Below, piece after piece: positions 855 through 49,200 of a stretch of 64,000 bases of DNA. The DNA lies in contig NC_057719.1 of the NCBI RefSeq assembly GCF_004010195.1, positions 15,220,974 to 15,284,973 on the forward strand, read 5' to 3'. Every line of letters begins with the position of its first letter. Position 1 is the first letter of the stretch. The notes under the pieces are model-generated. The model ran no database searches. It was not told the origin of the DNA and saw only the letters and a program-made list of their open reading frames with translations. The translations under genes were made by a program, and so were the position numbers. The DNA is from Chiloscyllium plagiosum (Eukaryota).

Positions 855-1013
855 GGAGAAGGTGCAGACTACAGATGCTGTAGATCAGAGTGGAGAGTGT
901 GGTGTTGGAAAAGCACAGCAGGTCAGGCAGCATCCGAGGAGCAGGAGAATCGACGTTTCAGGCAAGAGCCTTCATCAGGATTCATGTACTTTTCCAACAC
1001 CACACCCTTGACC
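855..1013 (-). mobile_element. Short PLE terminal-repeat insertion (family A) with a partial inverted arm
   Basis: Matches in reverse the 3' ends of the coding PLE copies at 22800-22927 and 43260-43387; flanked by direct repeat CTGAACTACAATA (842-854, 1014-1026). Confidence 0.88.
947..983 (-). ncRNA. Minimal type I hammerhead ribozyme motif
   Basis: RNA GAAUC-CUGAUGA-AGGC UCUU GCCU-GAAAC-GUC-GAUUC: 5-bp helix I, 4-bp helix II, intact core, helix III reduced to palindromic ACGU. Confidence 0.75.
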
Positions 1014-1069
1014 CTGAACTACAATATCCCTATTTTGGGTTATGAATGCATAACAGCCAAAGCTCCAGA

Positions 1070-1300
1070 GCCATGCAATGTCCGAGGTGCTGTCTTTTGA
1101 ATGAGATGTTAAGTCCAGGATCCCATCTGCCTGATCAGATCAATGTAAAAGACTGCATAACACTTTTTCATAGAATAATAGAGGAAGCATCCCTGCTGTG
1201 TTACTAAACTTCAATAACATCACATAATGAAGAAACAGATGCTCTGGTTATAGTCAACTTTGTAATTTAAAAAAATGTTGGTGCAATACAGATATATTAG
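1070..1300 (+). mobile_element. DeuSINE-like (SacSINE1/AmnSINE-type core) remnant
   Basis: GAGGTGCTGTCTTTTGAATGAGATGTTAAG...CATCTGCC...TGTAAAAGA resembles the recalled Deu domain. Confidence 0.6.
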
Positions 1301-1374
1301 TCTTTAATGCTTGACACAATTGAAGCAGAACTCAAATGCAAAACAACAGTCAAAGCATTTCATGAAGTTCTATA

Positions 1375-1505
1375 GCAAAAGCCAAATACTGTGGAAATCT
1401 GAATTGAAATCAGAAAATGCTGAGACACCCAGCAGGTTTGATAATGTCTGTGGAGACAGAAACAAAGTTAATGTTTCAGGTCTGTAACTATTCTTGAGAG
1501 CTACA
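1375..1505 (-). mobile_element. Old PLE terminal-repeat remnant (family C)
   Basis: Degenerate AATGCTG..CAGCAGGT..TCTGTGGAGA..GTTAATGTTTC; similar copies near 3650, 13860, 20190, 32420, 35630, 36190, 36930, 39010, 54110. Confidence 0.6.
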
Positions 1506-2829
1506 AAAAAAAGTCATATTATTGAGTGGAATTTGGCATCGAACAGTGAACAGCTCAGCCATTTTAATTGTGAAGTAGAATTACTTAATTGCTCAGATAA
1601 TTACTTCATAATTCTACTGGGGAACCTGGGGAGGAAGAATTATAAAATGTCACATGATGCACTAGCAATTTAATACACTCAAAATATTATACTCAAAACG
1701 GTAATACACATTCAGTTGTTAGAAGACATTATTTTTGCATTGATTGTAGACATCAATAATAATGTTAGCATTTGTTGCCCATTGCTAATTATCCTTGAAT
1801 TGAATGGCTTGTTAGACCATCTCAGACAACAGTTAAGAGTCAACCACATAGGTGTAGGTCTGGAATCACACATTGACCCAATCAGGTTACAATGGCGTAC
1901 TCACTATGACCCCTGAAAAATATGACACTTAAGCAAAATGTGGAAATGACTTCAAAGAAAACAATCTGGAGAAGAAATAATTTGAATACTTTCCAAAAAT
2001 CAGTAAGTGTTAATAATAAAAGTAAAACCTGAATATTAAAGGTAGAGGCTAATTGCAAAAGAAAGCAAAAATGCTTCAATTTCTTTTCAGCGACAAAAAC
2101 AAAACAAAGTTGATGGATGGAAAAGCAAGGAAGGATGGAAAAGCAAAATCAGTTGATGAAATAGGATGAAATTTTTTGTTGTCTTTGCTCTCCAAAAGGA
2201 AAAAAAGGTTGATACATTTTTTCATATTTAAAAATGGATGAAAGAAACAGTAGTAATATAACTCAGTTTCTTTTTTTTAAAAATATGTTGTACTCCTGTG
2301 TTCCTCAAAACTGCATGGTACAGGAAAACAAGATCATAACTGCTCTAAGCTAATAGCTTATTGGATCTGAGAAATGTGTAGGCACAAAAATTCCACCAAG
2401 TCCACAGGGATTTTGCTTTACTTTTGAAGAAAATGCAATAGTCATGGCTGCAGTAGAATACCATGAAAGCTCTTTAGATGTAAGGATGTTAAAAAATGGG
2501 CTGTTTTGCTTCTTCACGTACTATTTATGGCTGAGAAGCCAAAAGGTCAAAGATGAAAGGTAAGTGCAGTAAAACTGAATAATAAAACCAGCTTGAATAC
2601 ATAAAACATAAGATAATCACTGACTGTGTTCTCTCTTCTGCATTCATGAGTGACATCATACAGGTGATCTTAAAGGTGTACAGTATTTGATATCGACATG
2701 AGATTTGATAAGGAAACGATAAGTGGAATATTCATCATTGCTCATATCAAGTAGCTTGGGAAAAGGTGCTGATGTTGAAAATCAAAGATGACCATAGGAA
2801 TTGAACGGTAATAAGAGAATCTCACCAAC

Positions 2830-2964
2830 TTTAAGGGCATTTAAATGGTCATTGGATAGACATAAGGATGAAAATGGAATAGTGTAGAGTAGATGGGCTT
2901 CAGATTGGTTTCACAGGTCGGTGCAACATCGAGGGCCAAAGGGCTTATACTGCGCTGTAATGTT
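2830..2964 (+). mobile_element. CR1 LINE 3' end; tail resumes at 3255-3272
   Basis: GGCATTTAAATGGTCATTGGATAGACAT...GGGCCAAAGGGC..TACTGCGCTGTAATGTT; similar to 41782-41984; TATGTTC tail. Confidence 0.75.
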
Positions 2965-3254: not shown

Positions 3255-3834
3255 AATGTTCTATGTTCTATATGAAAGTCATCTTATTAAAGTGCTTCTG
3301 TTCCAATTCCTCCTTTTGATTCTATAAACTGTACAACTCTGATATTTCAGATTCATACATCAATTCTTTTTATCGCATAACAAAAGTTGTACTTTAAAAA
3401 ACACTTTAATGCATAAATTCCAACAGAGGTATACACGCTATAAATTTCTCCACTCACTGGCGATGTATGAATTTTAGGCCAAGGTAGATATTCTTTGCTG
3501 TGCTTAATAACGGCACTCATTTTTTTTTCCAGGGCTAGAGAAAGTTCCCATCCCTCTGAACATCTGAGACCCCGTCACAATGTCAAATTATTGCTTTAAT
3601 GATTTCACAATTTTTGCTTCCTTTAACCCCTTCCTGGAACTTAAACAAAAAAAAACTGTGGATGCAGGAAATCAGGAACGAGATCAGAAATTGCTGGAAA
3701 AATGTCAGGTCTTGCAGCATCTCTGGAGAGAAAGCAGAGTTAAGAACAATTCTGAAGAATGGTCACTGGACCCCTCTGTTCCTGGTTCATTGCTTCATCT
3801 CCCATTGCTCCTTTGCGATACATTTCCAGAACTA

Positions 3835-4944: not shown

Positions 4945-7230
4945 AAAAATTCTAAGAGAGAGGTAAACCCAATCACGGTTAGTCAAGGAGGTTAGAGGGA
5001 ATTAAATTTAAAGAAAAAGCATAAGAGGAGGCTGGAGACGGTGATAAACCTGAAGACTGGGAGAAATTCAAAATCCAGCAAAACATAACAAAGACAGAGA
5101 AAATAAGCAATGAGTACAAACTAGGTGAGGTACATAAAAACATACGAGTTTCTTTAAATATATAAAAAAGAGAGGAGTCAAAGTGAACTTGAGCCCCTTA
5201 GAAAATGAACCAAGGAGACAATTTTGGGGAACAAGGAAATAGCTGAGGAGTTAAACAGATATTTTGCAACAATCTTTACCGAGGAAGATACTTGGAACAT
5301 TCCATTAATACTAAAGAATCGGGGGAGGAAATTGAATACCATCACCATCACTAAAGTAGTAGTATTAGACAAACTAATGGGGCTAAAAGCAGATAAGTTC
5401 CATAGCCCCAACAGCTTGCATCCTAGTTTTATGTCATCAGCAAATCCTAAGTGGAAAGGCAGTTTGTGAGGGATTGAGTTTACAGAGAAATATTTATAGA
5501 TTATGTAAGTGAGCAAAACGTTGGAAAATGGAGTATAATGAGGGATAGTGTGAAGTTGGAATTTAGAAATGGAGAACAAAAGAACACACTATTTAAATGG
5601 AGAGTAATTGCAGAAAACTGCAACACAAAAGGCACTTGGGGGTACTTGTACACAAAGTACAGAAATCTAGCACACAGATGCAGCAGATAATCAGGAAGGC
5701 TAATGGAATGTTGGCCCTTATTTCAAGGATGTTTAAGGATAACAGTAGGGACGTCTTACTGCAATTGTACAAGGTGCTGGTGAAACCACACCTGGAATAC
5801 TGTCAGCAGTTTGGCCCTCTTATTTAAAGAAACATTTAAAATATCATTACGTTGGAGGTATTATCGCCAGGGAGCTTATGGCCTAGTAGTATTATTGCTG
5901 GACTATGCCATTCCTAATGAAGGGCTTTTGCCCGAAACATCGATATTCCTGCTGCCTGATCTGCTGTGCTTTTCTAGCACCACTCTAATCTTGACTATTA
6001 ATCCAGTCAGGTAATGTTCTGGGGACCAGAGTTTGAATCCCACCATGGCAGATGGTGGAATTTGAATTCAAGGAGAATCTGGAATTAAGGGTGTCATGAT
6101 GACCACAAAATCATAGCTAATAATCAGAAATACCCATCTGGTTTGCTAATGTTCTTCAGGGAAGAAAATCTGCCATCCTTACACTGTCTGGTATACATGT
6201 GACTCCAGACCCACAGCAATGTGGTTGACTTATTTCCCTCTGGGCAATTAGGGATGGGCAATAAAGGCTGGCCTAACCAGTGACATTCTCATCCTGTGAA
6301 TGAATTTTTAAAAAAAAGTTCAGAGAAGGTTGAAGGTGGACAGGCTGGGGCTTTTTTTTTCCCCCTCAAGCGAGGGAGGCTGAGGGGTGACCTTATAGAG
6401 GTTTACAAAATTATGAGGGACAGAGATAAGATGAATAGTTAAGGCTTACTTCCAGAGGTAGGGGAGTCCAAAACTAGAGGGTATAGGTTTAAGGTGTGAG
6501 GAGAATGATTTAAAAAGGGACCTCAGGGGCAATTTTTTCACACAGGGGTGGTGATGTATGGAATGAGTTGCCAGAGGAAGTGGTCATAGTAGGTACAATT
6601 ACATTTTAAAGACATTTGGACAGGTACATGAACAGGAAAGATTTAGAGGGGTTTGTACCAAACACAGGCACATAGAATCCCTGAAATCCCTGATTGGAAT
6701 GGATGAGTTGGGCCAAAGGGTCTATTTCTGTGCCGTATGACTTATGACTCTAAGTTTTACTTGTATAATCCCCGCTATGTCAGAATTGTGTTATGAGTAA
6801 AGGCTAAACAGGTCGGGACTCTAAATCACTGGAGTTTAGAACAAGAGGTGCTCTTAATGAAACACATCGGATTCTTAAGGGGCAGAGTAGGGTAAATGTT
6901 GAGAGCCTATTTCCCCTCGGGGACAACCTAGGACCAGAGGGACATAGTCTTAAACTGGAACCCCTTCTTCTGAGACTGAGATGAGGAGAAATTGCTTCTC
7001 TCAGAGGGTTGAGTGTCTTTGGAACTCTTTGCCACACATGGTGTGGTCAGAGTCTGTGTGTATATTTAAGGCTGAGATAGATTCTTGATTTACAGGGGAA
7101 ATCAAGAGTTCAAGGAAAGTTCAGGAAAGTGGATGTGAGAAATGTCAGATCAGCCATGATCCTACTGAATGGCAGAGCAGGCTCAAGGGGCCAAATGACC
7201 TACTTTGGTTTCTATTTCTTATGGTCTGAT
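4945..7230 (+). mobile_element. Fragmented CR1 LINE ORF2 and 3' ends, interrupted by a SINE and a second CR1 3' end (about 6335-6750)
   Basis: KEIAEELNRYFATIFTEED, RHLGVLVH, LLQLYKVLVKPHLEYC; tail units TATGAC(TC). Confidence 0.85.
5868..6310 (+). mobile_element. tRNA-derived SINE (family 2) containing a family-A PLE insert at about 5907-5992
   Basis: A box TGGCCTAGTAGT, B box GTTTGAATCC, tail GGGCAATTAGGGATGGGCAATAAA; related copies at 10270, 10890, 49005, 57805. Confidence 0.82.
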
Positions 7231-7402
7231 AAAAAAGTGTCATACACACCTCAGTCCTTGAAGTCCAATCACACCCCTCATCCTAACTGCCTTTATATCT
7301 TTCCGTGGGGAAAATAGAGGGGACCTAAGAAGGGGTGGAGACAAGAAAAAGTGTTACTGTCGTCCAGTGATTTTTAGCATCTGTTAATGGGACAATTTGT
7401 TA

Positions 7403-7608
7403 CCAGGAGAAAGTGAGGACTGCAGATGCTGGAGATCCGAGCTGAAAAATGTGTTGCTAGAAAAGCGCAGCAGGTCAGGCAGCATCAAAGGAGCAGGAGA
7501 ATCGATGTTTCGAGCATAAGCCTGAAGAAGGGCTTATGCCCGAAACGTCGATTCTCCTGCTTCTTTGATGCTGCCTGACCTGCTGCGCTTTTCCAGCAAC
7601 ACATTTTT
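7403..7608. mobile_element. Palindromic PLE-derived mini-element (family A)
   Basis: Inverted arms about 7443-7522 and 7530-7610; flanking direct repeat CAATTTGTTA (7393-7402, 7609-7618). Confidence 0.9.
7522..7549 (+). ncRNA. Minimal hammerhead ribozyme core
   Basis: CUGAAGA-A-GGGC UUAU GCCC-GAAAC-GUC. Confidence 0.65.
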
Positions 7609-7799
7609 CAATTTGTTAACAGTTATAATTGATATAATAGCAGAGCATTCAAATTCACATGAAATAAACAAATAGAGTAGACATGGCTCCGTGAGGGGAA
7701 AGTTATTTATTATAGTTATTTGAAGTAGTAACAAGCAGAATAGATAGGCCAAATGGCCTACTTCAGCTCCTATATCATATGGAATTATGATCTTCAACC

Positions 7800-11255: not shown

Positions 11256-14200
11256 ACAATTGTCCCAAACCTTGGCTCACCAACCAACTTAGATCCTACT
11301 TATTCAATCATATTTGACATTTACAGCTCATGGATCCTGCTGTGCAATTGCCAATGAGCAAATTAATCTTTATAGTCAGCTCTGAACAATTATAGAAACA
11401 TTGAATCTTATTGGAGCTATTTCAGTCCTTTGAAAGAACCATCCAACTCCTTCTCTATGCCCATTTTCTCTCTGTTGCCCTGGAAATGTTTTCTTTTGTG
11501 AGTTACTATTACATTTGCTTCATTATTCTTTCAAAGTATGTGCAATCTAAATCATAGCTTCTATCACTATAAACAATTTATGCACACAGCTTTCCTGGTC
11601 TCCTTACAAGCCAGGAAATCTCAACTACTCTAGTATGATTCGATTACACTGGAGTTTTTTTTTTAAAACTCTTTTTATAGTTCTCAACCTGCTAATATTC
11701 ATTAGGAATTCATAACCATTGGCCTCCTTCATAAACCAGGATGCTGTCATATTCATTTATAAATTAGTCATGAAGTTTGTAAATATTTGAAACTCATGTT
11801 AAGACTGCCTCTGCAGCTGTACCCAGGAGACTAAACAAACTTTACAATATATGTAATAAGTTGAATAAGGCCAAAAGGTGGCTTTTTAAAATTTTTGTAT
11901 TGTGCCTGATTTAAAAAGGCAGCTCGCTGACCAACACAGAACAAAAATGCTTCACATTTGCCAATGCTACAGAATGAACATCTGGCTCCAGTGTGTTAGA
12001 AGAACTTACACATGGCTCAAGTTTGTTGCCCTAATATTGTAAGCGTTCAAGTACGGTGGTGCACAACAGACTTGTGCACCATTACTTAATACAAATGCTT
12101 CCGACATTCTAACTATGAAGCTGACTTCCCCTCCGGGCTACGCAAAGAAGTTTGTGTGAGCTCTCTCTGCTTTGAGTTGCTTCTCCATTTTAACACCTCA
12201 CTTCAGGTCTGAAGATCATATACAAACTACAGGAAGCACTGGATTTCTTAACACTGAAGGAATTCTAGAAATATGAAACAGAATTGTTTGGAAACATGTT
12301 TCATAGGTCACAAGCTTAAACCACATTGGGACTGCATACCCGTTGAACACAAAGAATGCACTCCCTTTGCATCGGCACAGTGAGAAGATTCAATTTGCAG
12401 CTTATCCATTGGGTACAGGCCGCAGTTCAAAAGCAATAGAAAGATGAGAGAAGATGAATATGCCTTAGATATTGAATAGAGGTTAGTGGTGATATGGGCT
12501 TTGCTATCCTAAATTAAATAGCTGAAAATCAATACTGTTGACCCCAAATGCAGATGGAACAAATTTTACTAATTTTTTTAAAACACTGGCATCCTTCTGC
12601 ATAGCAACTAAATGATTTCTGAGACCGTTGCTCGTTGACAATATGGAATCCAGGGAAACTTACAGTGTTTGATAGCTAATCTATTCTGCCTTACAAGTCA
12701 CCTTACATATCCTTTATGTGAATAGGGATATTAAAAGATTGCAAAGTTAACTGCTGTTTGCTTCATTTCTGGTCATTTCAAAAGCAGAAAAAAAATACCT
12801 GGTTCTCACTTCTAAAAGATTCTGTAAAATGTCAACAAATCATGTCAACAAATGAACAAAGCATGGCATCTGGACTATAATGGAGGCTGTCAAAACTTTT
12901 ATAAACATAGATAAAATGTTTAATATTTCCTTGTTACACCACATTGTTGAATTTCAGAAAAGGATTCCAAAAAGTGATAAAAAGACCACACCACATTAAT
13001 TTAGCTACTTTTAATCATAAACAGTATAAATATTTGAAAATGATAAACCAAGAGCATCCATACCATCAAGCATTGCAAACAGGATTCAAAATATAAAAAT
13101 CTTAACCAGACAAAGAGATAACATTCAGTTCACAGCCAAACACCATTGAGCTGGATTATTTACTTGGTATTTAATTAAAACCATCTGAGTCTAGCAATAC
13201 TAATGAAGTGTGTGAGAACATTTACTTTGAAATGATCAACACATGATTCAGTGCATTCTGTAAGCAAAGTTCAGTTTAAGCTTATTTACTTTTTCCCTTT
13301 GCACATTCTCCAAGATCACCTTCTTATTAATAACAGTAATGAATGGAACTGTGCTACTGGTCTTGCTGCCAAAATAGTCACTGCATCAGTTATATAGCAC
13401 TACACTCTCACTCAAGACCATCTTATGAAAGTTGATTTGTAATGAAGCTCTGGAATGGCCAAAACCAACATTAAAAAAAACTCTGGCATTCGCAAAGTGA
13501 GCAAGAATCAGATCAAATGTGTTTCTGTGAACAACAATGCCTTCATTTGTTAAATACTTCTGTGATCTAGGACAAGAAAGTCCCACAGACTACACAACTT
13601 GCTAGCATTTTTTTTAATGCTGCAACAAAAAAAAACAAATTCTATATTCAAGTTGAACTCAACACTGATGTGCTGAAAATGTCTGCTCAATCTGTTTTGA
13701 AAAAGACAAAATGGTACAAAAGGTGCTAGCCAGCAAATATATGTCAGCTGCCTGTCGTCTAAGCATGTCTGCAATGAGTGTGATAGATTAAGACAGAAGA
13801 CTCCTACACTTCATAAAACAGTTCACCAACAGAAGAAACCCATGAATTGTTAAGTAAAAGCAGAAATTACTGGAAGTACACAGCTAGTCTGTTAGCATCT
13901 GTAAAGACGAAAAAAACAAATTGACATTTCAGATATAGATTCTACATCATAACTTGAAAGTGAGACTGTATTATCTTACAGTCTGGAAAAATATTCCCAA
14001 TCAAAAAGTCTCCTTTTGCATCTGCTGACAGACTTGCTGTGTATCTCTTGAACTTTGTTTTTTTTATTTAACAATTGCACTTTCTTATATCAAATCACAG
14101 TGGAATACACACAGGGGCACGTAGTTTCCATTCAAGTTGGAATCCTGATACTAATGACTCCCAATAAAGAAATGCCACACAGCAATTTTTTAAAATCATG

Positions 14201-25202: not shown

Positions 25203-25237
<35 letters not shown>

Positions 25238-34200: not shown

Positions 34201-37200
34201 GTGGTTGCAATGGAAGGTGCCATGAGGCTGTAAGGTCTCTGATTTACAGCATCTTTTGTTTTTTATTCTGTCAATTACTTCCGTTCAATGTTTGACCAGT
34301 TTGGCATCGTGGTAGTGCTGTACACATGATGGAGAATATCCTCACTGTGAAGGAAGGGCTTTGCCTCCTCACATCATCTCTAACCACTGAAAGGGTTCGT
34401 CATCAACAAGGCATAACATGAGACTTCATTTCAGACCCAAGGGAATTTCTTAAACAACATTACCTTCTCTAAGTGTCCCGACTTGTTGTATTTTTCCTCA
34501 GCAAAAACGAGGTCCATTTCACTCACATCATTTTTCAAGATGTAACATACTTTACTCTTGTAGAATTCTGGATCATCTGTTGCAAAATACTGCGAGCAGA
34601 GGTGACAAGATAGAGATGGTTCATAATCACACAAGCAACATTTTGGCACTTGTGAAAGGAGTAAAGACATGAACAGTGAAAATGCGATTTCATACTACTT
34701 TTTGGGCTACTGACACTATTAGAAGACGTGGGCAAATTTGCGATTTCCTTTCCTGTCGTATTAGTGTGAGCAGTGCCCTATATTTATAATCTGTGTCAAC
34801 ATCCAGTCAGAAGTTAATGGATTAGTCAGAAAAAAATACAGAGCATAAAGTAACTAGCAAGAACACTGCCATTAAAACCCAGACTTCAGCAATTTAGGGA
34901 GAAACGTTAAAGTTATGTCTTCAATCTAGAGCTTTCATTTGAAGTCTTACTCCCTGAAAAATCTGCAGCTCCATCCTCAAAACAACCATTTGTTTCAGTG
35001 GTATCTGAAAACAATTTAACTTAGAGTCATAGAGATGTACAGCACAGAAACAGACCCTTCAGTCCAACTCTGCCAAGCCAACCAGATATCCTAACCTTAT
35101 CTAGTCTCGTTTGTCAGCACTTGGCCCATGTCCCCCCAAACCCTTCCTATTCATATACCCATCCAGATGCCTTTTAAATGTTGTGATTGTACCAGCCTCC
35201 ACCACTTCCTCTGGCAGTTCATTCCATACACGCACCATCCTCTGCGTGTAAAGGTTACTCATTAGATCCCTTGTTAAATTTTTCCCCTCGCACCCTAAAC
35301 CTATGCCCTCTAGTTCTGGACTCTCCCATCCCAGGGAAAAGACCATGTCTTTTACCCTATCAATGTCCCTCATGATTTTATAAACCTCTATAAGATCACC
35401 CCTTAGCTTCCGACACTCCAGGGAAAACAGCCCTAGCCGACTTAGCCTCTCCCTATAGCTCAAATCCTCCAACCTTGGCAACATCCTTCTAAATCCTTTC
35501 TGAATGCTTTCAAGTTTCACAATATCCTTTGATAGGAGGGAGAAGTTGGAGAAAGAATTGAGAGAAAGGAAATCCAATCAAGTGCACAGTGTTGGAATTC
35601 AAAAGCTTGTCTTACAAACAGAAGAGTTCTCTGTTAACTTTGCTTTCTTTTCGCAGATGCTGCCAGGCCTGCTAAGATTTTCTAGCAATTTCTGATTTTG
35701 TTTCTGATTTCCAGCATCTGTAGTATTGATTTTTTTTTTTGTTTAGGTCTGAGTTTTGTTGGATTGAAGAGGGATGATTGTGGAGTGAATGAGTGGTGCT
35801 GGTAGAGGAAGGGCAGGAATAAAAAAAAGGAACCAAATGAGAAACGATTAGATTAGATTAGATTAGATTCCCTACAGTTTAGAAACATGCCCTTCGGCCC
35901 AACAAGTCCACAACAACCTTCCGAAGAGTAACCCACCCTCTGACTAATGCACCTAACACTATGGGCAATTTAGATTGGCCAATTCACCTGACCTGCACCA
36001 TCTTTGATCTGTGGGGGGAAACCCATGCAGACATGGGGAGAATGTGCAAACTCCACACAGTCACCCGAGGCTGGAATCGAATCTGGGATCCTGGTGCTGT
36101 GAGGCAGCAGTGCTAACCACTGAGCCACCGTGCCACCCACTTCACAACAAATCACTGTTGGCCAATTTAAAATCTTCGTGAGCTCAAAGTGCTGGAGAAA
36201 CTCAGCAGATCTAGCAGCACCTGTGGAGAAGGAAACAGAGTCACCATGGAGTCCTTTGACTTAGTTGGAATGAAGCACCATTGGATTTAAAATGTTGACT
36301 GAGTTTCTTTCTCCAGAGCTTAAAACTGTGTTGCTGGAAAAGCACAGCAGGTCAGGCAGCATCAAAGGAACAGGAGAATCGACGTTTTGGTCATAAGCCC
36401 TTCTTCAGGAATGAGGAGGGTGTGCCAAGCAGGCTAAGATAAAAGGTAGGGAGGAGGGACTTGGGGGAGGGGCATTGGGAATATGATAGGTGGAAGGAGG
36501 TTAAGGTGAGGGTGATAGGCCGGAGAGGGGGTGGGGGCGGAGAGGTCGGGAAGAAGATTGCAGGTCAAGAAGGCGGTGCTGAGTATGAGGGTTGGGACTG
36601 AGAAAAAGTGGGGGGAGGGGAAATGAGAAAGCTGGAGAAATCTGCATTCATCCCTTGTGGTTGGAGGGTTCCTAGGCGGAAGATGAGGCGCTCTTCCTCC
36701 AGGCATCGTGTTGCCATGGTCTGGCGATGGAGGAGGCCAAGGACCTGCATGTCCTTGGTGGAGTGGGAGGGGGAGTTAAAGTGTTCAGCCACGGGGCGAT
36801 TGGTTCCTGATCTGAGTTTCTCCAGCAATTTCTGTTTTCTTTTTTATTTCAGAACGCCAGCATTCACAGTACTTTTTTTTCCCAATTTAGAAAACATCAT
36901 TACATCAAGTTGAGTATGAAACAAAAAGCAAAATACTATAGATGCTATAAATATGAAATAAAAGCATTAAACACTCAAAAATGTTCAGACTGTCAGGGGT
37001 AGCATCTGTGAGAGACAAACTGAGTTCATATTTCAGATCAATGACCTTTCAGCGTTAACATGCTACTAATCTTCAACATGTGACGAAATATCAAATGCAT
37101 TCAAAAGACACAAAGGCCACATTAACTAATGAGCCCTCATTACCTTATAGTGCATCCTGAGTCCAATAATTTGTGCCAAGAATGAACGAGTAAAGCGAGC

Positions 37201-40200
37201 ACAAACTAGCTGTTTGTACGCTCCACCCTGTGCAGATTCATACAAGCACTTCCCAACTATTTTCCCTGCAAATTCATACAACTTCAGTCGAAGATGAGGT
37301 GATCGGTCTGGGTTTGGGTGTACCTAAACAACCAAACAAAACACTTCACTTATTCATTACGAAAATATGGTTTGTACAAAAAAAGATATGCTCAACAATA
37401 AATAAATAGTAGACTATATGTGCAGACTCAAATTGTTATTTCCTACCCCAAACAGAAATGGCCAGGCTTGTACTTTCAGGAAGTACCTTACGTAACCTCA
37501 GGATTTCTGAAAGTACTTTATACAACTTTGCAGCTAAGTCACAATTATTGGGAAACGTGACAACCGGTTTGCATAAGGACAGCATCGTTATTAACAGCTC
37601 TATGATAGAAGTTGAGAGATAAACGCAAAGGAAACACTATTATCCAAAGGACATGGGTGGGGAGTATTTCGATCTGTTCGTCAAATGCCGATTAATTGAT
37701 GCCGGATAACACAGTTAGCCACACATCGGGACCTCGCAATCTTGTTCGGATGATCTGAAGTCTGGTCAATCAAAAGCCGGATAATCGAGGTTCCTCTGTA
37801 GTAACCAGGCTAACTGGAGAATTCCCCATGGGATCTCGTACATCCACAAGAGAGAAAAGATGGGAACGGTGTTTACCATCAGCTCTGAAAAACATGATCT
37901 GTGACAATACAAAGCTGCCTCTGTACTCACTGCAGTATCTGCCTAGATTTGGTGCACAAGTGCAGGAATGGCACAGAAATTCATAATCTTCTGAATAAGA
38001 GGCAGTGTCAAACTACTGAACCAAGGCTGGCACCTGCTTTTCTCCATGCACATTTTATCAACAATGAAACAAATGATCAGATAATAAAACTTCTTCACTT
38101 CTAAAATACAAATTCAGATAAATATTTCAAATTAATTTGGCAACCTTTGAATAAGGGAATCACTTTAAACTCACCATAATGGACTCCTTCAGTGAGCAAA
38201 GAGGGGCTTTCACAACAATATTTACGACAGGAATTAGAGGTGACAGGACAGGATTTGGTTTCTGTCGCATTATGTAATACTGTCCCCTTCTCTATCTGTC
38301 ACATTTAGAATAGCACTACTCCTCAGAGAGAAAAAAATACTTTCTTGGCACTTAAACAATTTATCAGAAATTAGAAGTCTTACTATCCTGAATATTAAGT
38401 GAAATTTATACTCACCAGCCCCTGGTTATTGTCGCTGAAGTGCATGAACAGACCATTGCTTTGATCAAAGAGTGCTTTACACATCAATTCAAACCACTCC
38501 CTGCGTGGGCCACCCCAGTCCAATGCTGAAACAATACACAAGTACCTCAGAATAATAAAGTTATTTTCTCTTATTATGATGCTGACATTTGACATATGTA
38601 GTGCCTACATGAGGAAACTGATCTTCACAATAAGGACGATCAACATACAACCACAAAATCGTTAAGATAGAATTGTTGCAATGGGGCTAGTTTAGGTTCA
38701 TTCTGGAGAAGTAAATTAATGATCTGAATGTCATCCCTCAGTTGCAATTATCATGTGATCTTGCATCAAAATGCTTTGGATATTGATAGACAGTAAAATA
38801 CAACTGGGACAAATTCAAATCGAATTAAGTCAGCTGTGTAGACCATTACCAAATAAAGAAACTTAACTGCAAAAGCAAGTTTAAGCAGATTCACAATTAA
38901 ACAGACCACACACGATAACAGATCTCAATTCCCTTCTGTTCTCTCATGCACGGTTTCTCCTCCACCCTCATCTGACCTCAGTAAATTATATTTCTACCTT
39001 TTCCCAGTTCAGATGGAAAGTCATTTATCTTAAATGCTAATTCTGCTCTCTCTCTCTCTCTCTCTCCATAAGTGCCGCCCAACCTACTGACTATTTCCAG
39101 CACATTGTGTTTACATTTCAGATGTCCAGCATGTACAGTAGTTTGCTTTTGTGCAGGTAAGTAATGAGTTAGCTGGCCTACTCTTGTGCTGTTTGTGCCT
39201 GATCTCAAATCCATACAGCAGCATTTGTGTGGATACAGAAACAGGTTTCTCAAGGCTGGTGACTGTACACAGAGGTTACAGGAAACAGAAGAGTGCAGGA
39301 ACTAATAGATTCGCATCAATACAACAGAACTGACATTTCATGGCCTGAATATTTTTCTTACTGCAATGCTGCTAATTTGTGTCATTTGGTGCTGTGGGTT
39401 AAATCCTGAGAGAGGCAGTCAACAAAGTTAAATCTCTCAAGTATCTGTGAAATCCTACATCATCCAAAATAAACCCAATAAAATCTCAGTCATATCAATT
39501 TATCATCGTAGCCTATATTTGTCAAACTTAAAGCAATTCGATTTTACAGCAAGTAGATTTACCCCATTAATGCATACAGCAGCCGTGGAAAATGTTGACA
39601 TGCCTTTGGTACTGACCTTCTTCATCCTGAAAAATCACTTCAAAATTCTTGCTCCAATCAGAGACTGAGAAGTTTCTTGTTGCTTTCAGGGACTATTAGG
39701 ATGCAGAAATTAAACAAAAAAGGCAAAGTGAATTTTAATTATAATTGCTACTGAATTAAAATAAATCAAGATACATAGAGTCAGAGATATGTACAGCATG
39801 GAAACAGACCCTTCGGTCCAACCCGTCCATGTCGACCACATATCCCAACCCAATCTAGTCCCACCTGCCAGTACCTGGCCTATAACCCTCCTAACCCTTC
39901 CTATTCATAAACTCATCCAAATGCCTCTTAAATGTTGCAATTGTACCAGCCTCCACCACTTTCCTCTGGCAGCTCATTCCATACTCGTACCACCCTCTGC
40001 GTGAAAACGTTGCCCCTTAGGTTCCTTTTATATCTTTCCCCTCTCACGTTAAACCTGTGCCCTCTAGTTGTGCACTCCCCGACCCCAGGGAAAAGACTTT
40101 GCCCATTTACATGCTGGACTGGATTTTTAAAACTACAATGTGCACTTGGCTGACGAATGCCTGAAGGTACACATTAACAGAAATTTCCTAAGGTGGGAAA

Positions 40201-43200
40201 TAAAATAATTGACCTAGGTTAAAGAGTACTTTATTTCTGGAGACGAGAATTTTAATAATAGGTCATTAATTATCAAAGTAGATGGACTGCAATAATGCAG
40301 GGAGCACATGAAACTCACCGACTCAAGGAAACTGTGACGGCTGATTTTCAGTACAATCTTTGTATGTGAACGTTTCATGTGCATTTGACGAAGTTCTCGC
40401 TGAAAGAAATTCACTTTGTCTTGGAAAGTTTCAGAACCACCTGTGATGTGATATGGTAACAATCCACAAGGTTATATTTCATACCAACAGTTCATACGTT
40501 CATAAGATATAGGAGCAGAATTAGGCCATTTGGCCCACTGAATCTGCTCCGCCATTCGATATGCTCACTCCCATTTTTCTGCCTGCTATCCTTATCCCTT
40601 CAACCCATTAACAATTAAAAACCTGTCTAACTCCTCCTTAAATTTACTCACTGTCCCAGCACCCAGCACACATTGGGTTAGCGAATTCCACAAGTTAATA
40701 ACCCTTTGAGAGAAATAAGTTCACTTCAACTCGGTTTTAAAATATGCTACCCCAAGACTGTGACCTCTTGTCCCAGAATGCCCCACAAGAGGAAGCATCC
40801 ACTCCGTGTCTATTTTATCCACACCTTTTATTAAGATCTTGAATACCTCAATTTAATCTCCCCTCATTCTTCTAAATTCCAAAAAATATAGGCCTAAACT
40901 GTTCAATCTCTCTTCATACGACAAACCCCTCATCTCTGGGATCAATCTAGTCAACCTTCGCTGAACTGCCTCCACTGCCACTACATCTTTCCTCAAATAA
41001 AGGGACCAAAACTGTACACAATACCCTAGGTAGGGTCTCACCAATACCTTGTATAGTTGCAACAATACTTCCTTATCTATATATTCTATTCCTTTAGCTA
41101 TAAAAGCCAACGTTCCATTCACTTTCTTTATTATCTGCTGTGTCTGCATGCTAGTTTTCTGTGACTCATGAATGAGTACTGGATTAGAGGTGCTGGAAGA
41201 GCGCCTCATCTTCACCATGGATACCTAATCCCTCTACACCTCCATCCGCCATGACCAGGGCCTCCAAGCCCTCTGTTTCTTCCTCTCCCGACATCCCCAA
41301 CAGTACCCTTCCACCGACACACTCATTCGTTTGGCCAAACTGGTCCTCACCCTTAACAATTTCTCCTTCAAATCCTCCCACTTCCTCCACAACAAAGGAG
41401 TAGCCATGGGCACCTGTATGGGCCCCAGCTATGCCTGTCTCTTTGTTGGCTACGTAGAACAATCCATCTTCCATAATTACACCGGCACCACTCCCCACCT
41501 CTTCCTCCGCTACACTCATGACTGCATTGGCGCCACCTTGTGCTCCCACGAGGAGGTTGAGCAATTCATCAACTTCACCAACACATTCCATCCTGATCTT
41601 AAATTTACCTGGACCATCTCTGACACCTCCCTCCCCTTCCTGGACCTCTCCATCTTCATTAATGACAACCGACTTGAAAGCAACATTTTTTTACAAACCC
41701 ACCGACTCCCACAGCTACCTGAACTACACCTCTTCCCACCCTACCTCATGCAAAAATGCCATCCCGTATTCCCAATTCCTCTTTTCTTTACTCAGCGAGT
41801 CGTGAGTTCATGGAATGCCCTGCCAGTAGCAGTGGTGGACTCTCCCTCATTATGGGCATTTAAGCGGGCATTGGATAGGCATATGGAGGATAGTGGGCTA
41901 GTGTAGGTTAGGTGGGCTTGGATCGGCGCAACATCAAGGGCCGAAGGGCCTGTACTGCGCTGTATTCTTCTATGTTCTATGTTCTCTGCCTCCACCGTAT
42001 CTGCTCCCAGGAGGACCAGTTCCACCACAGAACACACCAGATGGCCTCCTTCTTTAGAGACCGCAATTTCCCTTCCCACGTGGTTAAAGATGCCATCCAA
42101 CACATCTTGTCCACATCCCACACCTCCGCCCTCAGACCTCACCCCCCCCAACCGTAACAAGGGCAGAACGCCCCTGGTGATCACCTTCCACCCTACCAAC
42201 CTTCGCATAAACCAAATCATCCGCCAACATTTCTGCCACCTCCAAACAGACCCCACCACCTGGGATATATTTCCCTCCCCACCCCTTTCCGCCTTCCGCA
42301 AAGACCATTCCCTCCATGACTACCTGGTCAGGTCCACACCCCCCTACAACCCGTCCTCCCATCCTGGCACCTTTCCCTGCCACCGCAGGAATTGCAAAAC
42401 CTGTGCCCACACCTCCGCCCTCACCTCCACCCAAAGCCTTAAAGGAGCCTTCCACATCCATCAAAGTTTTACCTGCACATCCACCAATATAATTTATTGT
42501 ATCCATTGCTCCCGATGCGGTCTCCTCTACATTGGGGAGACTGGACGCCTGCTAGCAGAGCGCTTTGGGGAACATCTCTGGGACACCCGCACCAACCAAC
42601 CACACTGCCCTGTGGCCCAACATTTCAACTCCCCCTCCCACTCTGCCGAGGACATGGAGGTCCTGGGCCTCCTTCACCGCCGCTCCCTCACCACCAGACG
42701 CCTGGAGGAATAATGCCTCATATTCCACCTTGGAACACTTCAACCCCAGGGCATCAATGTGGACTTCAACAGNNNNNNNNNNNNNNNNNNNNNNNNNNNN
42801 NNNNNNNNNNNNNNNNNNNNNNNNNNNNNNNNNNNNNNNNNNNNNNNNNNNNNNNNNNNNNNNNNNNNNNNNNNNNNNNNNNNNNNNNNNNNNNNNNNNN
42901 NNNNNNNNNNNNNNNNNNNNNNNNNNNNNNNNNNNNNNNNNNNNNNNNNNNNNNNNNNNNNNNNNNNNNNNNNNNNNNNNNNNNNNNNNNNNNNNNNNNN
43001 NNNNNNNNNNNNNNNNNNNNNNNNNNNNNNNNNNNNNNNNNNNNNNNNNNNNNNNNNNNNNNNNNNNNNNNNNNNNNNNNNNNNNNNNNNNNNNNNNNNN
43101 NNNNNNNNNNNNNNNNNNNNNNNNNNNNNNNNNNNNNNNNNNNNNNNNNNNNNNNNNNNNNNNNNNNNNNNNNNNNNNNNNNNNNNNNNNNNNNACTTTC

Positions 43201-46200
43201 TCCCCACCCCCACCCTCCTCTCACTTATCTCTCCACCCTTCAGGCTCTCTGCCTGTATTCCTGATGAAGGGCTTTTGTTTGAAACGTCGATTTTACTGCT
43301 CCTCGGATGCTGCCTGAACTGCTGTGCTCTTCCAGCACCACTAATCCAGAATCTGGTTTCCAGCATCTGCAGTCATTGTTTTTACCTCAGGAATGAGTAC
43401 ACCTAGATGCCTCTGCACTGCAGCACCCTGAAGCTCTCCCCATTAAGATAATAGGTCACCTTACCTTTTTATTGACCCAAATGCATGACCTCACACTTAC
43501 CCGCGTTAAATTCCATGTGCCACATTTTGGCCCACTCTCCTAACCTATCTATATCCATTTGTAAGGTCCTTATTTTCTCATTGCAATTTACTATACTTTT
43601 GTGCCATCAGGAAATTTCGCTATAGAGCCTTCTATCCCTGTATCTAAGTCGTTAATGTCCGTTGGTAAATAGCTGGGGCCCAAGGACCGAATCCTGCGGC
43701 ACCCCGCTAATTACACTTTGCCATCCAGAAAAAAAACCATTTATCCCGACTCTCTGTCTTCTGTCCATCAGCCAGTCATCTATCCTGGTTAATTACTCCT
43801 AATCCCATATGATCCAACATTGTTAATTAACCTTTAGTGCGGCACCGTTTAAATGCCTTTCAGAAGTCCAGATAAATTACTTCTACAGCATCCCCACACT
43901 GCTTGTTACATCTTCAAAGAACTCTAACAAATGAGTCAAACAGGATTTGCCCTTCATAAAACCTTGCTGACTCTGATGGATGGCTTTTTGACTTTCCAAA
44001 TGTCCGAATATTGCTTCCTTGATTCCAACACTTTCCCAACATCAGTTGCTAAACTGACTGGTCTGCAATTTCCCGCACTGTTCCCCCCTCCCGTTTTGAA
44101 TAAAACTGTTATATTAGCCATTTTCCAATCCACTGGAAGCTTCCCCGTGTCCAGGTATAGTGGACTAAGTTGATCAATCACAAACAATAAATTGTTGCCA
44201 TTATCTCAAAAAAGATACATAACATATAACAATGTTGCTTAGGCAGACAGTTCAGCCTCAGTTTAATATTTCATCTAAAGACCATCACTGACAATAAAAC
44301 ATTACTCATTATAGTGTCTAAAGTACCAGTTTGGATTATGTGTTCAACAGTTAGAACAATTTAAAATTATAATACATGGCAGGTAATAATTCCTAAAGGT
44401 CAATTTGCACCGCGACAAACACATGTAAAGGATTGTAGTAGCTAACTGTACACTTAGAATCTTGAACATCTGAAGCAACTGTACACAAGATATTTAATAC
44501 CAAGTGTATAAATATAGAAGAGTGAAAATGAACTGCAGTGATAGAAGACAGCTAACACAAAGGAACATGAGAAATAAACTGTAGATTGGTCTCAATCAAA
44601 CCAAACTTCTCTTTATATTTTAACCAAACGTACAAGATTTTCTTTCTTTAAATAGGCTTTTCATGTCCAATTTTATTTTGTAGTCCTGAGGCAATGGGAC
44701 AGACATAACTCAATTCAACCAAATGAAAATTTAAAATGACTCAGATGCTAATTTTTCTTCCCTTTTGCATCCAAATAAATTTTCTAGCCATCACTTGGCA
44801 TCTCCTCAAAACAGCTTTCCTGACAGACCTGAAGACATGGGAGATTTGCCGTAACAGAAATCAGGAGCAGAATTCGAATCCAAGCGGTGCTTGGCAGTGA
44901 TCTGATACTGGGGTGTTTGCTCTTTAGCTGTCCAGTTCAAACTATTTTCCCAAATTTAACAGCATTTTTTTTCTCTCTGATACACAACATTTACATATCA
45001 GACAAGTACAGTCAAAGTTTCAGTCCTTACCAATGTTCTTATGTAAGAAACGAATAAATGTTGCTGCCATGATGTTTCTTTCTTTACAACTGAGTTCCAC
45101 AGGAGGCTGTATCCCATCATCCACCACTAATGTGAGGAACTTGTGCACTGGATCTAGACTATGGTAGTAAAACTGAAGATAAAAAGATACAATTTTATTT
45201 TCTCCCCCAATCAATTTCTCGTCTCAACTTCTCTGAACTCTATTGAGACTATCAACACCTGTGGAGATTCTACTTTCGGTTCTGTTTAAGCAAACTGACA
45301 AGAAAATATCCTGCACTTACTCATGGAGGATCATTGACGATCGAAGCAGTCAATCTTCATTACTGTGTCTAGACAGTGGCAAACTATTTATAAGTTGGAA
45401 TGAAAGGTGTGGAGAATCAGAATCAAATTGGCTCAGTCTTCACTGGGTGCCTACATACTATAGCAAGCCAACAAAAACACACTGGACTGCAGTGAGGACC
45501 AATAATGTTAGTTAATTCTTCCTGTAGGTCTGTAACCAAAATTAATTGCAGAACTTTCCTGCAGCTTTGGTCAAGATTAGTTAACGCTTAGCAATTAAAC
45601 ATCAGATAGATCTTGTCAATAGAAATATATAACACACAAGGTATATTTAGCCCATTATGTTTCCTTTTGGTTGTACTGCAGAGTAATTAAACACCAATTG
45701 AAAGTTGCTCCCTGTCCACCAAAATCTCATAATTGGAATAAAAGACCTACCTTTGTTCCTGGACATACTCTGCAAGTAAAAAGTCTCCAGGGTATGATTT
45801 TCAGATAAAACTCCTTCACTGAGAATTGCTGCAAAACAAATATTCTTTTTACTGTTCAGTTTGCATCAGCTGCTGAGTATATTAATTTGAATTTCTTTGG
45901 GTTTTAACTTTAAGCATGTTTCAGTAATAGGTAAAGGATGAGAATACCACAAGCTCTCAAATAATGTTTCTGCCTTCACTGGTATTCCAAAGCTCAATGG
46001 AATGTACTAGTAAGGGAAAAAGAGGTTGTGAAATAAGGGTTGCAGCAACAACTGCTGCAGCAATTAAAGGGCACAAGAGACAAATAACTTCAAATGGCCA
46101 GGGTTCCAGCTTCTGACTGTTGTGTATCACCCCTCGTGAATGCATGCACATCAAGGATCGAAGTAAAGATACATTCATATTCAGCCTCAAGGGCCTTGAC

Positions 46201-49200
46201 AGTAAGCTAGGAACAAGAGACTAACCATAAATGGTCAGTAGGAGAGATCACTAGAGGGTAATTAACATGAATGTAACTACATTCTAACAAGGAACCATTT
46301 GTTTTCAAGGGAGGAAAAAAAAAGAGAAAATTGTCAAAAAATAATTAATAAAAAGAATGCTGCTCAGATTTTCAAATGAGCACATGTGCCTTGGCTGAAG
46401 ATGGGCCTAAAAATCTGAACAAGTTGAAGGAAAAATTAACAAAACAGAAAGCCTGATCTTTACACCACTGGAGCACAACCTACCTAATAACTTCTAGAAA
46501 AGCCACACATTAAGCACATGAAAACATTTTCACAACACTGAATAGTGAGTGTTTCAGTATGTATAACTGAAACATAATTCCATCCTCTTATTTTGAGTTC
46601 CTCTGGTAATAAAGGGCACTGTCCCATTAGATTTCTTGATAATGCTACAAATGTAAAATTTCTAATTTGCAGATGAAACAAAGCTATATAAGAATTTTTA
46701 TTCCAAGGAAAATGCAAAACATTTTCAACAGGATTTGGGCAGGTTTTGTGATTGGATAAGAACACAGTAGATGGAATATAAATGTGCAACAATGTGAGGT
46801 TATCCACTTTGGTAGGAAGAACAGATGTGCAGAGTATTTGTTAAATGGTGAGAAGTTGGAAACTGTAGATAATCAAAGCAACTACGGTGCTGTCGTGAGC
46901 CTTCAGTGACTTGCTGACATGTAGCAAGTTATTAGGAAGGCAAATGGAATATTAGCCTTTACCATTAAAGGTGGTAAAAAAATTGAGTACATGAGTCATG
47001 AATTCTTGCTTCAATTGTGTAAGAGCTTGGTTAGTCTGCAACTAGAGTAGAGTGCGCAGTTTTGGTCTCCATATCCCAGGGAAGGTATTATAATTGCCAT
47101 AGAGGGAGTGTAAAGAAGATTCACCAGATTTGTTCCTGGATGGCAGGATGGTCTTGAAAGAGGATGGGCAAACTAGGCTTGTATTCTCTAGAGTTTTGAA
47201 GAATAAGAGATGATCTCATTGAAATCTACAAAATACTGAACAGTATAGACCGGGTAGGTGCATGCAAGATGCTTCCCACAATTTTGGAGTCTAGATCCAA
47301 GAAGCACAATTCAAAATTAAGGCGGATGCTTCATAAGTCCGTGAATAAGAAAATTTCTTTTACTCAGTAGGGGGTGAAATCTTTGGAATTTTCTACCCAC
47401 AGGAAGCTGTTAGGTTCAGTCTTTGAGTACATTTAAAGCAGAGTTAGATGAATACTTTGATCAATGGCATGAGGGTTATGAAGATAGTATGGGAAAAAGC
47501 CTGGGTTCAAGTCCCACCTACTTCAGGGTTGTATTTTCACATCCCTGAATAGGTTGATTAAATAATACCTTCAAGTAGGTTGAGCAAGGGGCAGAAATCT
47601 GCCACATTTCATTTTCCCACATTATACTCAAAGTTGTTCACTTTGGCAGGAAGAATAATAAAACAGAAGATTATTTAAAATGAGAATGAATTTAAAATTT
47701 CAAGGTGCAGAGAAATCTAGGTGCTTTAGTGCATGAGTCACAGAATGTTCGGATAGGCTTGCAACAAAAAAATTGTAAGGCTAGTGGAATTCCATCCTTT
47801 GCTATTTGAAAAATTGAGCCAAAAAGTAAGGGGGTTACGTTTTAGTTAAGCAGGGCATTGTTGACAGCACATCTTGAATACCCATGCAATTTGGATATGC
47901 TTCTCGAAAGGACGACGCAAACACTTTGGAGGTGATTCAGAGGTGTTTACTAGATTGATATTTTGGATGAGTGGGATGTCTTACATGGAAACGTGGGACA
48001 GGCTGGGCTTGTTTCAACTGGATTTTGAAAGAATGACTGATGACTTAATTGAAATGGATGAGATCCTAAACTGTCTTAACAAGATAGATTGGGAAAGGAT
48101 GCTTCCTCTTGAGAGTGAGTGAGTCAAAAATTAGAGGGCACCATTTAAAAATTAAGTGTCTCCTGATTCACCCTGTAATATTTCCTTCACTCTCAATCAT
48201 CGAAGAAAATAGCATCCATGTACCATCATTGATTCACAAGATCCTAAGTGGGAAGCATCCTTGCAGTGGCATTGGAAAAGCACAGCAGGTGAGGCAGCAT
48301 CTGAGAAGCAGGAAAATTGACGTTTCAGGCAGGAGCCCTTCATCAGGGATGAGCTCATTCCTGATGAAGGGGTCCTGCCCAAAACGTGATTTTCCTGCTC
48401 CTCGGATGCTGCCTGATTTGCTGTGCTTTTCCAGCACCACTCTAATCGTGACTCTGATCTCCAGTATCTGCAGTCCTCACCTTCGTCTTGCAGTGGCATT
48501 GTTGATCATCTTTCACAGGCACTCAAAAAAATCTTTTTAAAAAAATGAATATTCTCGTCTAGCTTACAGTCCATTGACAGTACACTGCCACCAAAGGCTT
48601 TGCATGGGCCACTGAGGGATAAAAAGAAGAATAACCCACCCTCCAGAGGTTGCTGTGAGGTAGATTAGATTAGATTAATTACAGTGTGGAAACAGGGCCT
48701 TCGGCCCAACAAGTCCACACCGCCCCGCCGAAGCACAACCCACCCATACCCCTACATTTACCCCTTGCCTAACACTACGGGCAATTTAGCATGGCCAATT
48801 CACCTGACTTGCACATCTTTGGACTGTGAGAGGAAACCGGAGCACCCGGAGGAAACCCACGCAGACACGGGGAGAACGTGCAAACTCCACACAGTCAGTC
48901 GCCTGAGGCGGGAATTGAACCCGGGTCTCTGGCGCTGTGAGGCAGCAGTGCTAACCACTGTGCCACCGTGCCGCCCACCAGGGAATTTTGTTTTTTTAAA
49001 TATTTATTCATGGGGTAAGAGTGTCACTGGCTAAGCAGCATTTACTGCCTATCCATGATTGCCCAGGAGGCAGTAAAGACTCAATCACAATACTGTGGGT
49101 CTGGAGTCACCGTAGATCAGACCAGGTAGTTCCCTTTCCTAAAGGACATTTGTAAACCAAATAATTTGCTGGTAGTCTACACTTACTAGCAGGCTCGAGA

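Follow-up and report, generated by a model that had tools for sequence, protein, structure and literature searches.

Four inserts of the 64-kb window (the whole stretch of Chiloscyllium plagiosum DNA analysed here) are, in all probability, dead-end, extremely short insertions of autonomous PLEs of the Neptune/Nematis type. We hold it as very likely that they formed at integration and do not represent a replicating family, and we lean slightly towards two priming events per insert. The claim of a new ribozyme retroelement does not stand; the value of the inserts lies in the evidence that they offer on the formation of inverted PLE ends, a process that the PLE literature cited below calls unresolved.

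The coordinates assigned to the inserts in an earlier note on this DNA proved exact (Table 1), and each insert consists, as proposed there, of PLE terminal-repeat sequence alone, arranged head-to-head. The inserts are palindromic, as was also stated, yet lopsided, the inverted arm of insert 1 measuring only ~30 nt. Perfect direct repeats of 13, 10, 13 and 15 nt flank inserts 1 to 4. Among 1500 similarly spaced pairs of random boundaries (±5 nt slack), an 8-nt repeat occurred once and one of 9 nt or longer never, which upholds the reading of the flanking repeats as TSDs. The set of four is real but incomplete: the single-arm stump 5907-5994 and the long copy 41180-43390 belong with it, and so, probably, does 33082-33201 as a decayed fifth stump. 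The last, 2.2 kb long and protein-coding, has the same layout of inverted arm, tail and TSD as the short inserts. The target site of 5907-5994 is present once, without the insert, in a paralogous repeat (57800-57890), and a paralogous copy at 25945-26050 is free of the stump at 33082-33201. The flanks of the four listed inserts have no usable paralogue within the 64-kb window, so that the empty sites are those of 5907 and 33082 only.

Table 1. PLE-derived features of the window. Element positions are given on the ruler of copy 21420-22926, in which 22926 = -1.
Feature	Position	Strand	Description
Insert 1	855-1013	-	Tail-bearing arm, element about -131 to -1 (minus, 855-985); ~30-nt inverted arm, element -64 to -36 (984-1013)
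Insert 1 TSD	842-854	+	13 nt; second copy 1014-1026
Insert 2	7403-7608	-	Tail arm, element -117 to -1 (minus, 7406-7522); tail-less arm, element -127 to about -39 (plus, 7521-7608)
Insert 2 TSD	7393-7402	+	10 nt; second copy 7609-7618
Insert 3	27524-27694	+	Tail-less arm, element -121 to -38 (minus, 27524-27609); tail arm, element -88 to -1 (plus, 27606-27694)
Insert 3 TSD	27511-27523	+	13 nt; second copy 27695-27707
Insert 4	48275-48486	+	Tail-less arm, element -133 to about -56 (minus, 48275-48353), fused head-to-head with tail arm, element -133 to about -3 (plus, 48354-48486)
Insert 4 TSD	48260-48274	+	15 nt; second copy 48487-48501
Probable fifth stump	33082-33201	-	Within LINE-like repeat; tail-less arm, element -129 to -33 (minus); tail remnant of ~20 nt; degenerate ~7-nt TSD
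Single-arm stump	5907-5994	+	Tail-less arm, element -133 to about -38; 6-nt TSD
Long 5′-truncated PLE copy	41180-43390	+	Broken RT, Cys linker, GIY-YIG with CCHH; 24-nt inverted arm at 5′ end (41180-41203, element -62 to -39), tail at 3′ end; 10-nt TSD (41170-41179/43391-43400); includes assembly gap of N
Second long PLE copy	21420-22926	+	Internally deleted, tail at end; 5′ boundary approximate
~500-nt 5′-truncated PLE copy	36314-36811	-	No tail; subfamily of insert 2; 10-nt flanking direct repeat (36299-36308/36812-36821)

The arms correspond to the final ~130 nt of a PLE that is also represented in the window by broken RT and GIY-YIG genes, in agreement with the PLE origin proposed earlier; no full-length PLE copy was found in the 64 kb. 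The EN region shares 86% identity with a Chiloscyllium protein and also matches proteins that combine RT and GIY-YIG; one relative, P0007, scores above the Pfam cut-offs for both RVT_1 and GIY-YIG. The RT piece, which itself gave no RVT_1 match in Pfam, is identical at 134 of 156 positions (86%) to P0011, which bears RVT_1 and DKG. Ten of the 11 window frames searched with Pfam were without a match, and one gave a weak GIY-YIG match (42150-42710, E = 0.0008, short of the curated cut-off). The translation of the 41205 frame has two Cys between GIY and YIG and His residues downstream (CCHH), and both long copies carry a CX4CxxC-like motif upstream of the EN, with the last Cys read as in C-K-T-C. 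The CCHH motif and the CX2-5CxxC RT-EN linker of Neptune/Nematis are taken as defined in PMC8557442. With an RT followed by a C-terminal GIY-YIG endonuclease, the parent falls among the EN+ PLEs and, by its predicted Cys linker, is of the Neptune/Nematis type.

Each of the six two-armed inserts (the four listed, 33082 and 41180) has one arm with a tail and one without. The tail-less arm ends at -32 to -39 (±3 nt) in seven of eight cases, the exception being insert 4, in which it ends at -56. Outer ends recur at the element 3′ end and ~35 nt earlier. The TSD of insert 4 is partly similar to the element where the arm stops. An inverted 5′-truncated repeat, a tail at one end and TSDs of 10-15 nt in the listed inserts give these loci the layout of a PLE insertion. 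They resemble EN+ PLE insertions such as Adineta vaga Pen2a, which, according to PMC3846280 and PMC8557442, have a head-to-head inverted arm that falls short of the 3′ repeat by about 35-39 nt, a tail at a single end, a TSD of about 10 bp and a parent with a C-terminal GIY-YIG. The former gives an inverted pLTR 37 bp shorter, a 31-bp tail and a TSD of 8-10 bp, and the latter a tail of 30-40 bp at one end only. Unlike Pen2a, the shark inserts hold neither an ORF nor captured DNA between the arms, the whole insertion measuring 120-210 bp, and their TSDs reach 13-15 nt, compared with 8-10 in the cited text.

A biochemical precedent is PAc, a Poseidon element of the lizard Anolis. According to PMC11167929, both strands are cleaved and extended in vitro, RT begins at two sites bounding the tail (starting near +111-118), RNA up to +172 is required, and HHR cleavage is unnecessary. 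The shark inserts share with PAc the two recurrent 3′ ends bounding the tail, a hammerhead a little over 100 nt upstream, the copying of an uncleaved hammerhead into DNA, and the lack of RNA ends at the cleavage site. They differ in the Cys linker of the Neptune/Nematis parent, which is absent from Poseidon, and in target sites that are not markedly AT-rich.

Under the preferred explanation, dead-end insertion, the GIY-YIG endonuclease would nick both target strands 10-15 nt apart, as the TSDs suggest. Each 3′-OH would then prime RT within the PLE RNA, at either of two start sites separated by ~35 nt, yielding one arm with a tail and one without. The outer ends are observed; their identity as RT starts is suggested by PAc, whose biochemistry is extrapolated here from the Poseidon clade to a Neptune/Nematis-type parent. 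Both cDNAs would terminate at a length of 25-135 nt, in many cases immediately 5′ of the hammerhead. Their head-to-head joining, in some inserts via a microhomology of 2-4 nt, would account for the junctions that we observe. Gap filling would finally duplicate the target. The hammerhead would be carried along simply by virtue of its position, 100-130 nt from the element end. At the centre of insert 3, a start at -88 with 4-nt microhomology is simpler than a start at -129 followed by deletion, and the latter was dropped. The 5′ inversions produced by LINE-1 twin priming show inversion, truncation, TSD and centre microhomology, as the shark inserts do; the L1 pieces cover different parts of the RNA, whereas both shark arms cover the same region. 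A literature search for PLE, twin priming, inversion and GIY-YIG together found nothing, and subscription papers (Arkhipova 2006, Evgen'ev 2005) may describe such stumps.

The centre differs in every insert, as had been noted, also within one subfamily (insert 3 versus 4; insert 2 versus 33082). Differing centres would not by themselves prove that the inserts formed independently, since a long palindrome may also lose its centre at a later stage. The closest match of the inverted arm was its own partner in all five cases tested (own partner versus next: 80 versus 70, 94 versus 92, 90 versus 84, 82 versus 79 and 92 versus 62 percent, the second and fourth margins being thin), and arms group by insert and subfamily, of which there are four, not left-with-left. 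This pairing by insert and the shared layout of the 2.2-kb coding copy favour one of two alternatives offered earlier, extreme 5′-truncation/inversion arising independently at integration. Conversion inside the hairpin could be another source of arm similarity. Arms of the same subfamily would also be accounted for directly by fold-back after one priming, in which the first cDNA primes and copies itself into an inverted arm, as proposed for rotifer PLEs (PMC3846280). Insert 4, a blunt head-to-head fusion with both arms reaching -133, and insert 1, whose inverted arm lies wholly within the element interval covered by the tail arm, fit this course. However, the tail-less arms of inserts 2 and 3 hold about 10 and 33 nt absent from the tail arm and thus, barring a later loss of the centre, are not copies of it; the stop at -35 needs a separate cause. 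Overall, we consider fold-back unlikely.

Our junction statistics comprise 15 arms of one window and the listed joints from public contigs. Six of the 15 inner ends cluster within 7 nt immediately 5′ of the hammerhead (-127 to -133; post hoc P about 0.02 or lower). Such a cluster is not favoured by random deletion, and the arms meet without body sequence in all four inserts; both points weigh against the stumps being longer insertions whose interior was later deleted through recombination between inverted terminal repeats. The inverted repeats around the 2-kb body of 41180-43390 and the tail remnant at 33181-33201, itself deleted, speak for later deletion, to which we give very little credence. 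Truncation by HHR cleavage was rejected, as the cleavage site (about -98) coincides with 0 of the 15 inner ends. Splicing was rejected as the cause of the cluster: the three long copies do have AG-ending pyrimidine tracts 15-35 nt upstream of the hammerhead, but these lie away from the cluster. Within the preferred explanation, the cluster hints that RT ran off an RNA with a fixed 5′ end. We suggest, tentatively and with more doubt than confidence, that the stumps record the second half of PLE integration. Both nicked strands would prime on PLE RNA, one always at the tail site and its counterpart at the upstream site. Short products would run off the RNA at a fixed 5′ end, a transcription start located 3-7 nt before the hammerhead core. 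If so, the ~130-nt repeats that are very abundant in the shark would have arisen as strong-stop-like cDNAs, with the 5′ terminal-repeat copy as the site of priming, and the model could be tested from genomes alone on tens of thousands of such junctions.

The hammerhead core CUGAnGA...GAAAC-GUC is intact in three of the four inserts, as previously reported (insert 1, minus strand from 978; insert 2, plus, 7522; insert 4, minus, 48346). The plus-strand copy in insert 4 has GAAA changed to AAAA, and insert 3 has no core. Inserts 1, 2 and 4 (minus) display minimal type I features, namely the core, a base between 9 and 10.1, G10.1-C11.1 and a palindromic stem III. Metazoan PLE minimal hammerheads (PMC4209133) share the CUGAnGA, the extra base before G10.1, GAAA, the palindromic stem III and GUC; the shark main family differs in a stem II of 4 bp and in a stem I complete in insert 1 only. 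The same paper also reports paired motifs on opposite strands, separated by 100-700 bp, and numerous solitary motifs that derive from truncated PLEs. Among 11 decayed copies, 83.7% of stem II cells and 56.4% of stem I cells were paired; the covariation score, reached in 53 of 500 shuffles, was not significant, and the both-side changes were reached in 14 of 500. The ribozyme call is a motif reading, not a covariance-model match, an Rfam scan having returned no hammerhead among seven matches at E ≤ 1. In insert 1, the core lies outside the long duplex and has a 5-bp stem I. The core of insert 2 at 7522 is without the 5′ strand of stem I, and its GAAA is paired in a hairpin of ~80 bp (unpaired probability 0.00); both cores of insert 4 are paired in the hairpin, with an unpaired probability of 0.00 for CUGAnGA on both strands. 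Absent in one insert, predicted to be locked in a long hairpin in two and free in one, the hammerhead is, on these models, a passenger.

The other alternative raised earlier, expressed also in the title word "family", was a non-autonomous ribozyme-bearing class. In such a retrozyme-like palindromic family, hammerhead-processed hairpin RNAs would use the PLE RT in trans, and centres would diverge later by deletion. Non-autonomous PLE derivatives do exist (PMC8557442; bioRxiv 10.64898/2026.07.22.740005). The non-LTR retrozymes of the preprint are likewise short, non-coding and PLE-pLTR-derived, with a type I hammerhead; they are head-to-tail tandems with at least two same-strand ribozymes, whereas the shark inserts are head-to-head singles with at most one usable core. 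We found no tandem units at the insert loci, where the arms are inverted and at most one core is foldable. The arms pair by insert across four subfamilies, the fold is blocked in two of the three core-bearing inserts, and no inner end marks the cleavage site. By analogy with PAc, copies ending at the RT start may also lack the binding site (PMC11167929). We judge a palindromic family highly improbable.

Public contigs and reads were mapped onto one 600-nt copy (36281-36880), which was matched by 85,012 and 70,845 contigs in two species. The family is abundant, and junction statistics could therefore decide between two-strand priming and fold-back. The terminal ~100 nt reached a summed DNA-contig depth of 6-23 million versus 0.8-3.8 million for the PLE body, and an RNA-read depth of about 2350 versus 40-110; this step would favour a palindromic family, but the divergence of subfamilies upstream of the hammerhead is a confounder. 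No high-depth shared joint appeared among the 15 joints listed of 110 for this copy (depth at most 113 versus summed depths of millions); contigs break at perfect palindromes, so that a high-copy palindromic master could be hidden from the joint list. With all centres different and no such joint among those listed, the recurrent shared junctions of a replicating family did not emerge. Joints to 36812 mark where an older flank repeat begins to resemble the arm, and left ends alone were therefore used. One listed joint (36380-36413, single-copy depth) touches the cleavage site. A search for expression listed no RNA data set for 27001-37000. RNA reads lay on both strands, 96% continuing into unrelated sequence, and the proposed pile-up of read ends was absent from this polyA single-cell run, a type of data ill-suited to capturing ribozyme-cut ends. 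Annotators should be aware that hairpins of this kind may be mistaken for MITEs, SINEs or miRNA precursors; the Rfam matches were to hairpin-driven miRNA-precursor and snoRNA families, all below their gathering scores (mir-3622, 57 bits versus a cut-off of 78).

The four small inserts of inverted terminal repeat in the earlier note proved to be correctly placed, with exact direct repeats of 13, 10, 13, and 15 nt bounding inserts 1–4, respectively. Among 1500 random boundary pairs (spacing of 155–215 nt, slack of 5 nt per side), repeats of at least 6 nt occurred in 55, of 8 nt in one, and of 9 nt in none. Two further stumps, at 5907–5994 and 33082–33201, have empty paralogues, which supports a target-site duplication (TSD) reading for both. 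Three longer Penelope-like element (PLE) copies (∼21420–22926, 36314–36811, and 41180–43390) have 3′ ends that match the insert arms. The inserts are real, PLE-derived, and formed at integration.

PLE-related features in the window
Feature	Position (nt)	Remarks
Insert 1	855–1013	
Insert 2	7403–7608	
Insert 3	27524–27694	
Insert 4	48275–48486	
Further stump	5907–5994	Paralogous repeat 57800–57890 without insert, flanking motif present once
Probable fifth two-armed stump	33082–33201	Inside LINE-like repeat; tail remnant deleted; paralogue 25945–26050 empty, flanking motif once
Long PLE copy	41180–43390	Broken RT, Cys-rich linker, GIY-YIG domain with CCHH residues
Pyrimidine tracts with AG end	22760–22800; 36420–36450 (minus); 43220–43256	
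Older PLE terminal repeats	3660–3790; 13860–14070; 32428–32516; 35630–35735; 36189–36260; 36900–37050; 39020–39140; 54110–54210	

Positions were numbered from the element 3′ end (22926 = −1; ±3 nt, owing to subfamily indels). All six two-armed inserts (inserts 1–4, 33082, and the long copy 41180) combine one arm at or near −1, the tail arm, with one inverted, tail-less arm stopping earlier; in seven of the eight tail-less arms the stop falls at −32 to −39. The exception is insert 4, whose tail-less arm stops at −56, where the target site resembles the element. This layout of inverted arm, tail, and TSD is already published for PLEs: in Adineta, the inverted terminal repeat (pLTR) is 37 bp shorter than the full pLTR, with a 31-bp tail and an 8–10 bp TSD (PMC3846280); a 30–40 bp tail is often present at one end only (PMC8557442); and PMC8969392 summarizes the insertion layout likewise. 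The literature searched, with most subscription journals outside its coverage, yielded no paper on these shark stumps.

By the segment from −60 to −35, at least four subfamilies can be told apart among the copies, and the two arms of any one insert are of the same type. In 5/5 inserts aligned with both arms, the best match of the inverted arm among 13 other arms was its own partner (80, 94, 90, 82, and 92% identity vs 70, 92, 84, 79, and 62% for the next best, two of the five margins being thin). Such likeness could also arise by conversion inside a hairpin. The centers, where inner ends meet, are unlike even among inserts of one subfamily. Four public runs were mapped onto the copy at 36281–36880 at 85% likeness, and DNA runs of two species gave 85,012 and 70,845 contigs. 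The 15 of 110 joints listed had depths of at most 113 vs summed depths of millions, so that no abundant shared center was seen among them, in a list partial for one run (X1), from contigs that break at perfect palindromes and with only near-subfamily sequences mapped. Together with the published inverted-arm layout, these observations favor truncation and inversion at integration over the non-autonomous replicating family that the earlier note had also proposed. The insert loci contain no tandem units and thus fall outside the definition of a retrozyme, a non-autonomous hammerhead retroelement, which includes such units (bioRxiv 10.64898/2026.07.22.740005).

In PMC11167929, PAc, a Poseidon-clade PLE of Anolis, is described as nicking and extending each of the two target strands, with its reverse transcription (RT) beginning at two internal sites bounding the tail. 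By analogy, we infer that a two-priming scheme may apply to the shark PLE, in which a staggered double nick and one priming per RT start site would place an inverted tail-less arm, followed by a tail arm, between the two TSD copies. What was observed is the TSDs, a pair of outer ends that recur, a single tail in each insert, and arms from the same subfamily; the nicks, priming, and joining steps we infer. Center microhomology amounts to 2 nt in insert 2 and 4 nt in insert 3. Alternatively, the inverted arm could originate from one priming event, with a single cDNA folding back and priming itself. This fits inserts 1 and 4, whereas the tail-less arms of inserts 2 and 3 carry ∼10 and 33 nt not in the tail arm, which argues against fold-back unless the centers were trimmed later.

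Six of 15 inner ends lie at −127 to −133, 1–7 nt upstream of the hammerhead core. With simulated exponential arm lengths, six ends in any 7-nt window gave P = 0.024 (mean 60), 0.003 (mean 100), and 0/20,000 trials (means 200 and 400) in a test selected post hoc, after data inspection; with insert 4 counted once and three long copies left out, 5/11 fell in the window (P = 0.021). Four of the 15 joints listed (of 110) end at the same edge, 36411–36413, with differing partners, as do 4 of 12 rows in a further table from this mapping; subfamilies also diverge at this edge, biasing the clipping. A fixed RNA 5′ end would account for the inner-end cluster, an explanation that we consider possible but less likely than not.

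The hammerhead core attributed to three inserts is present in them and matches the minimal type I motif, but its GAAA or CUGAnGA element is paired in inserts 2 and 4; insert 3 has no core. In whole-insert folding, the unpaired probability of GAAA was 0.97 for insert 1; for insert 2, which folds as a single hairpin of −157 kcal/mol (z −20), it was 0.00. For CUGAnGA in insert 4, the corresponding value was 0.00 on either strand. An Rfam scan detected no hammerhead, and covariation over 11 decayed copies gave no clear signal either way. Positions 27532–27649 of insert 3 scored 57 bits against Rfam mir-3622 (cut-off 78), owing solely to the long hairpin. In PMC4209133, minimal hammerheads occur paired on opposite strands 100–700 bp apart, many single motifs derive from truncated PLEs, and activity is as same-strand dimers. 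Inverted arms cannot supply such a dimer. No inner end among the 15 coincides with the cleavage site, indicating that the templates were uncut there, as in PAc (PMC11167929). The earlier note had looked to RNA read ends at the GUC site; one polyA single-cell run (∼2 in 100 of it read), a library ill-suited to cleavage ends, gave no pile-up. On 36281–36880, 2,963 of 12,955,460 reads mapped, on both strands, and 96% continue into unlike sequence, which fits passive read-through.

The GIY-YIG endonuclease (EN) part of 41180–43390 had 12 relatives among 525 candidates, a Chiloscyllium protein leading (86%), with whale shark, zebra shark, and ray proteins among the others; the longer relatives contain both RVT_1 and GIY-YIG. 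The RT part was identical at 134/156 positions to an RVT_1-bearing relative (P0011), which has a DKG motif. By features described in PMC8557442, the predicted parent is a C-terminal EN+ PLE of the Neptune/Nematis type. Within this copy lies an assembly gap of ∼420 N (42774–43194), and its RT frame is broken by a ∼200-nt piece of another repeat (41782–41985; second copy at 2831–2967), presumably resembling a LINE 3′ end. A 500-nt copy (36299–36821) with a 10-nt direct repeat sits inside an older PLE terminal repeat, recalling the in vitro nicking by PAc of its own pLTR. All three long copies carry a pyrimidine tract ending in AG, 15–35 nt upstream of the hammerhead, resembling the intron end beside the hammerhead in Drosophila Penelope (PMC4209133).

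The older terminal repeats, which belong to related PLE families and are more decayed, have hammerheads with a longer stem II and a different stem I; those at 13860–14070 and 3660–3790 resemble inverted pairs, and several likewise seem to start immediately upstream of the core. At 44829–44860 lies a motif that resembles the core, has a longer stem II region, and is unrelated to the arms. An ∼80-nt repeat has three copies in 59149–59835 (spacing 296 and 312 nt) and a fourth at 47487.
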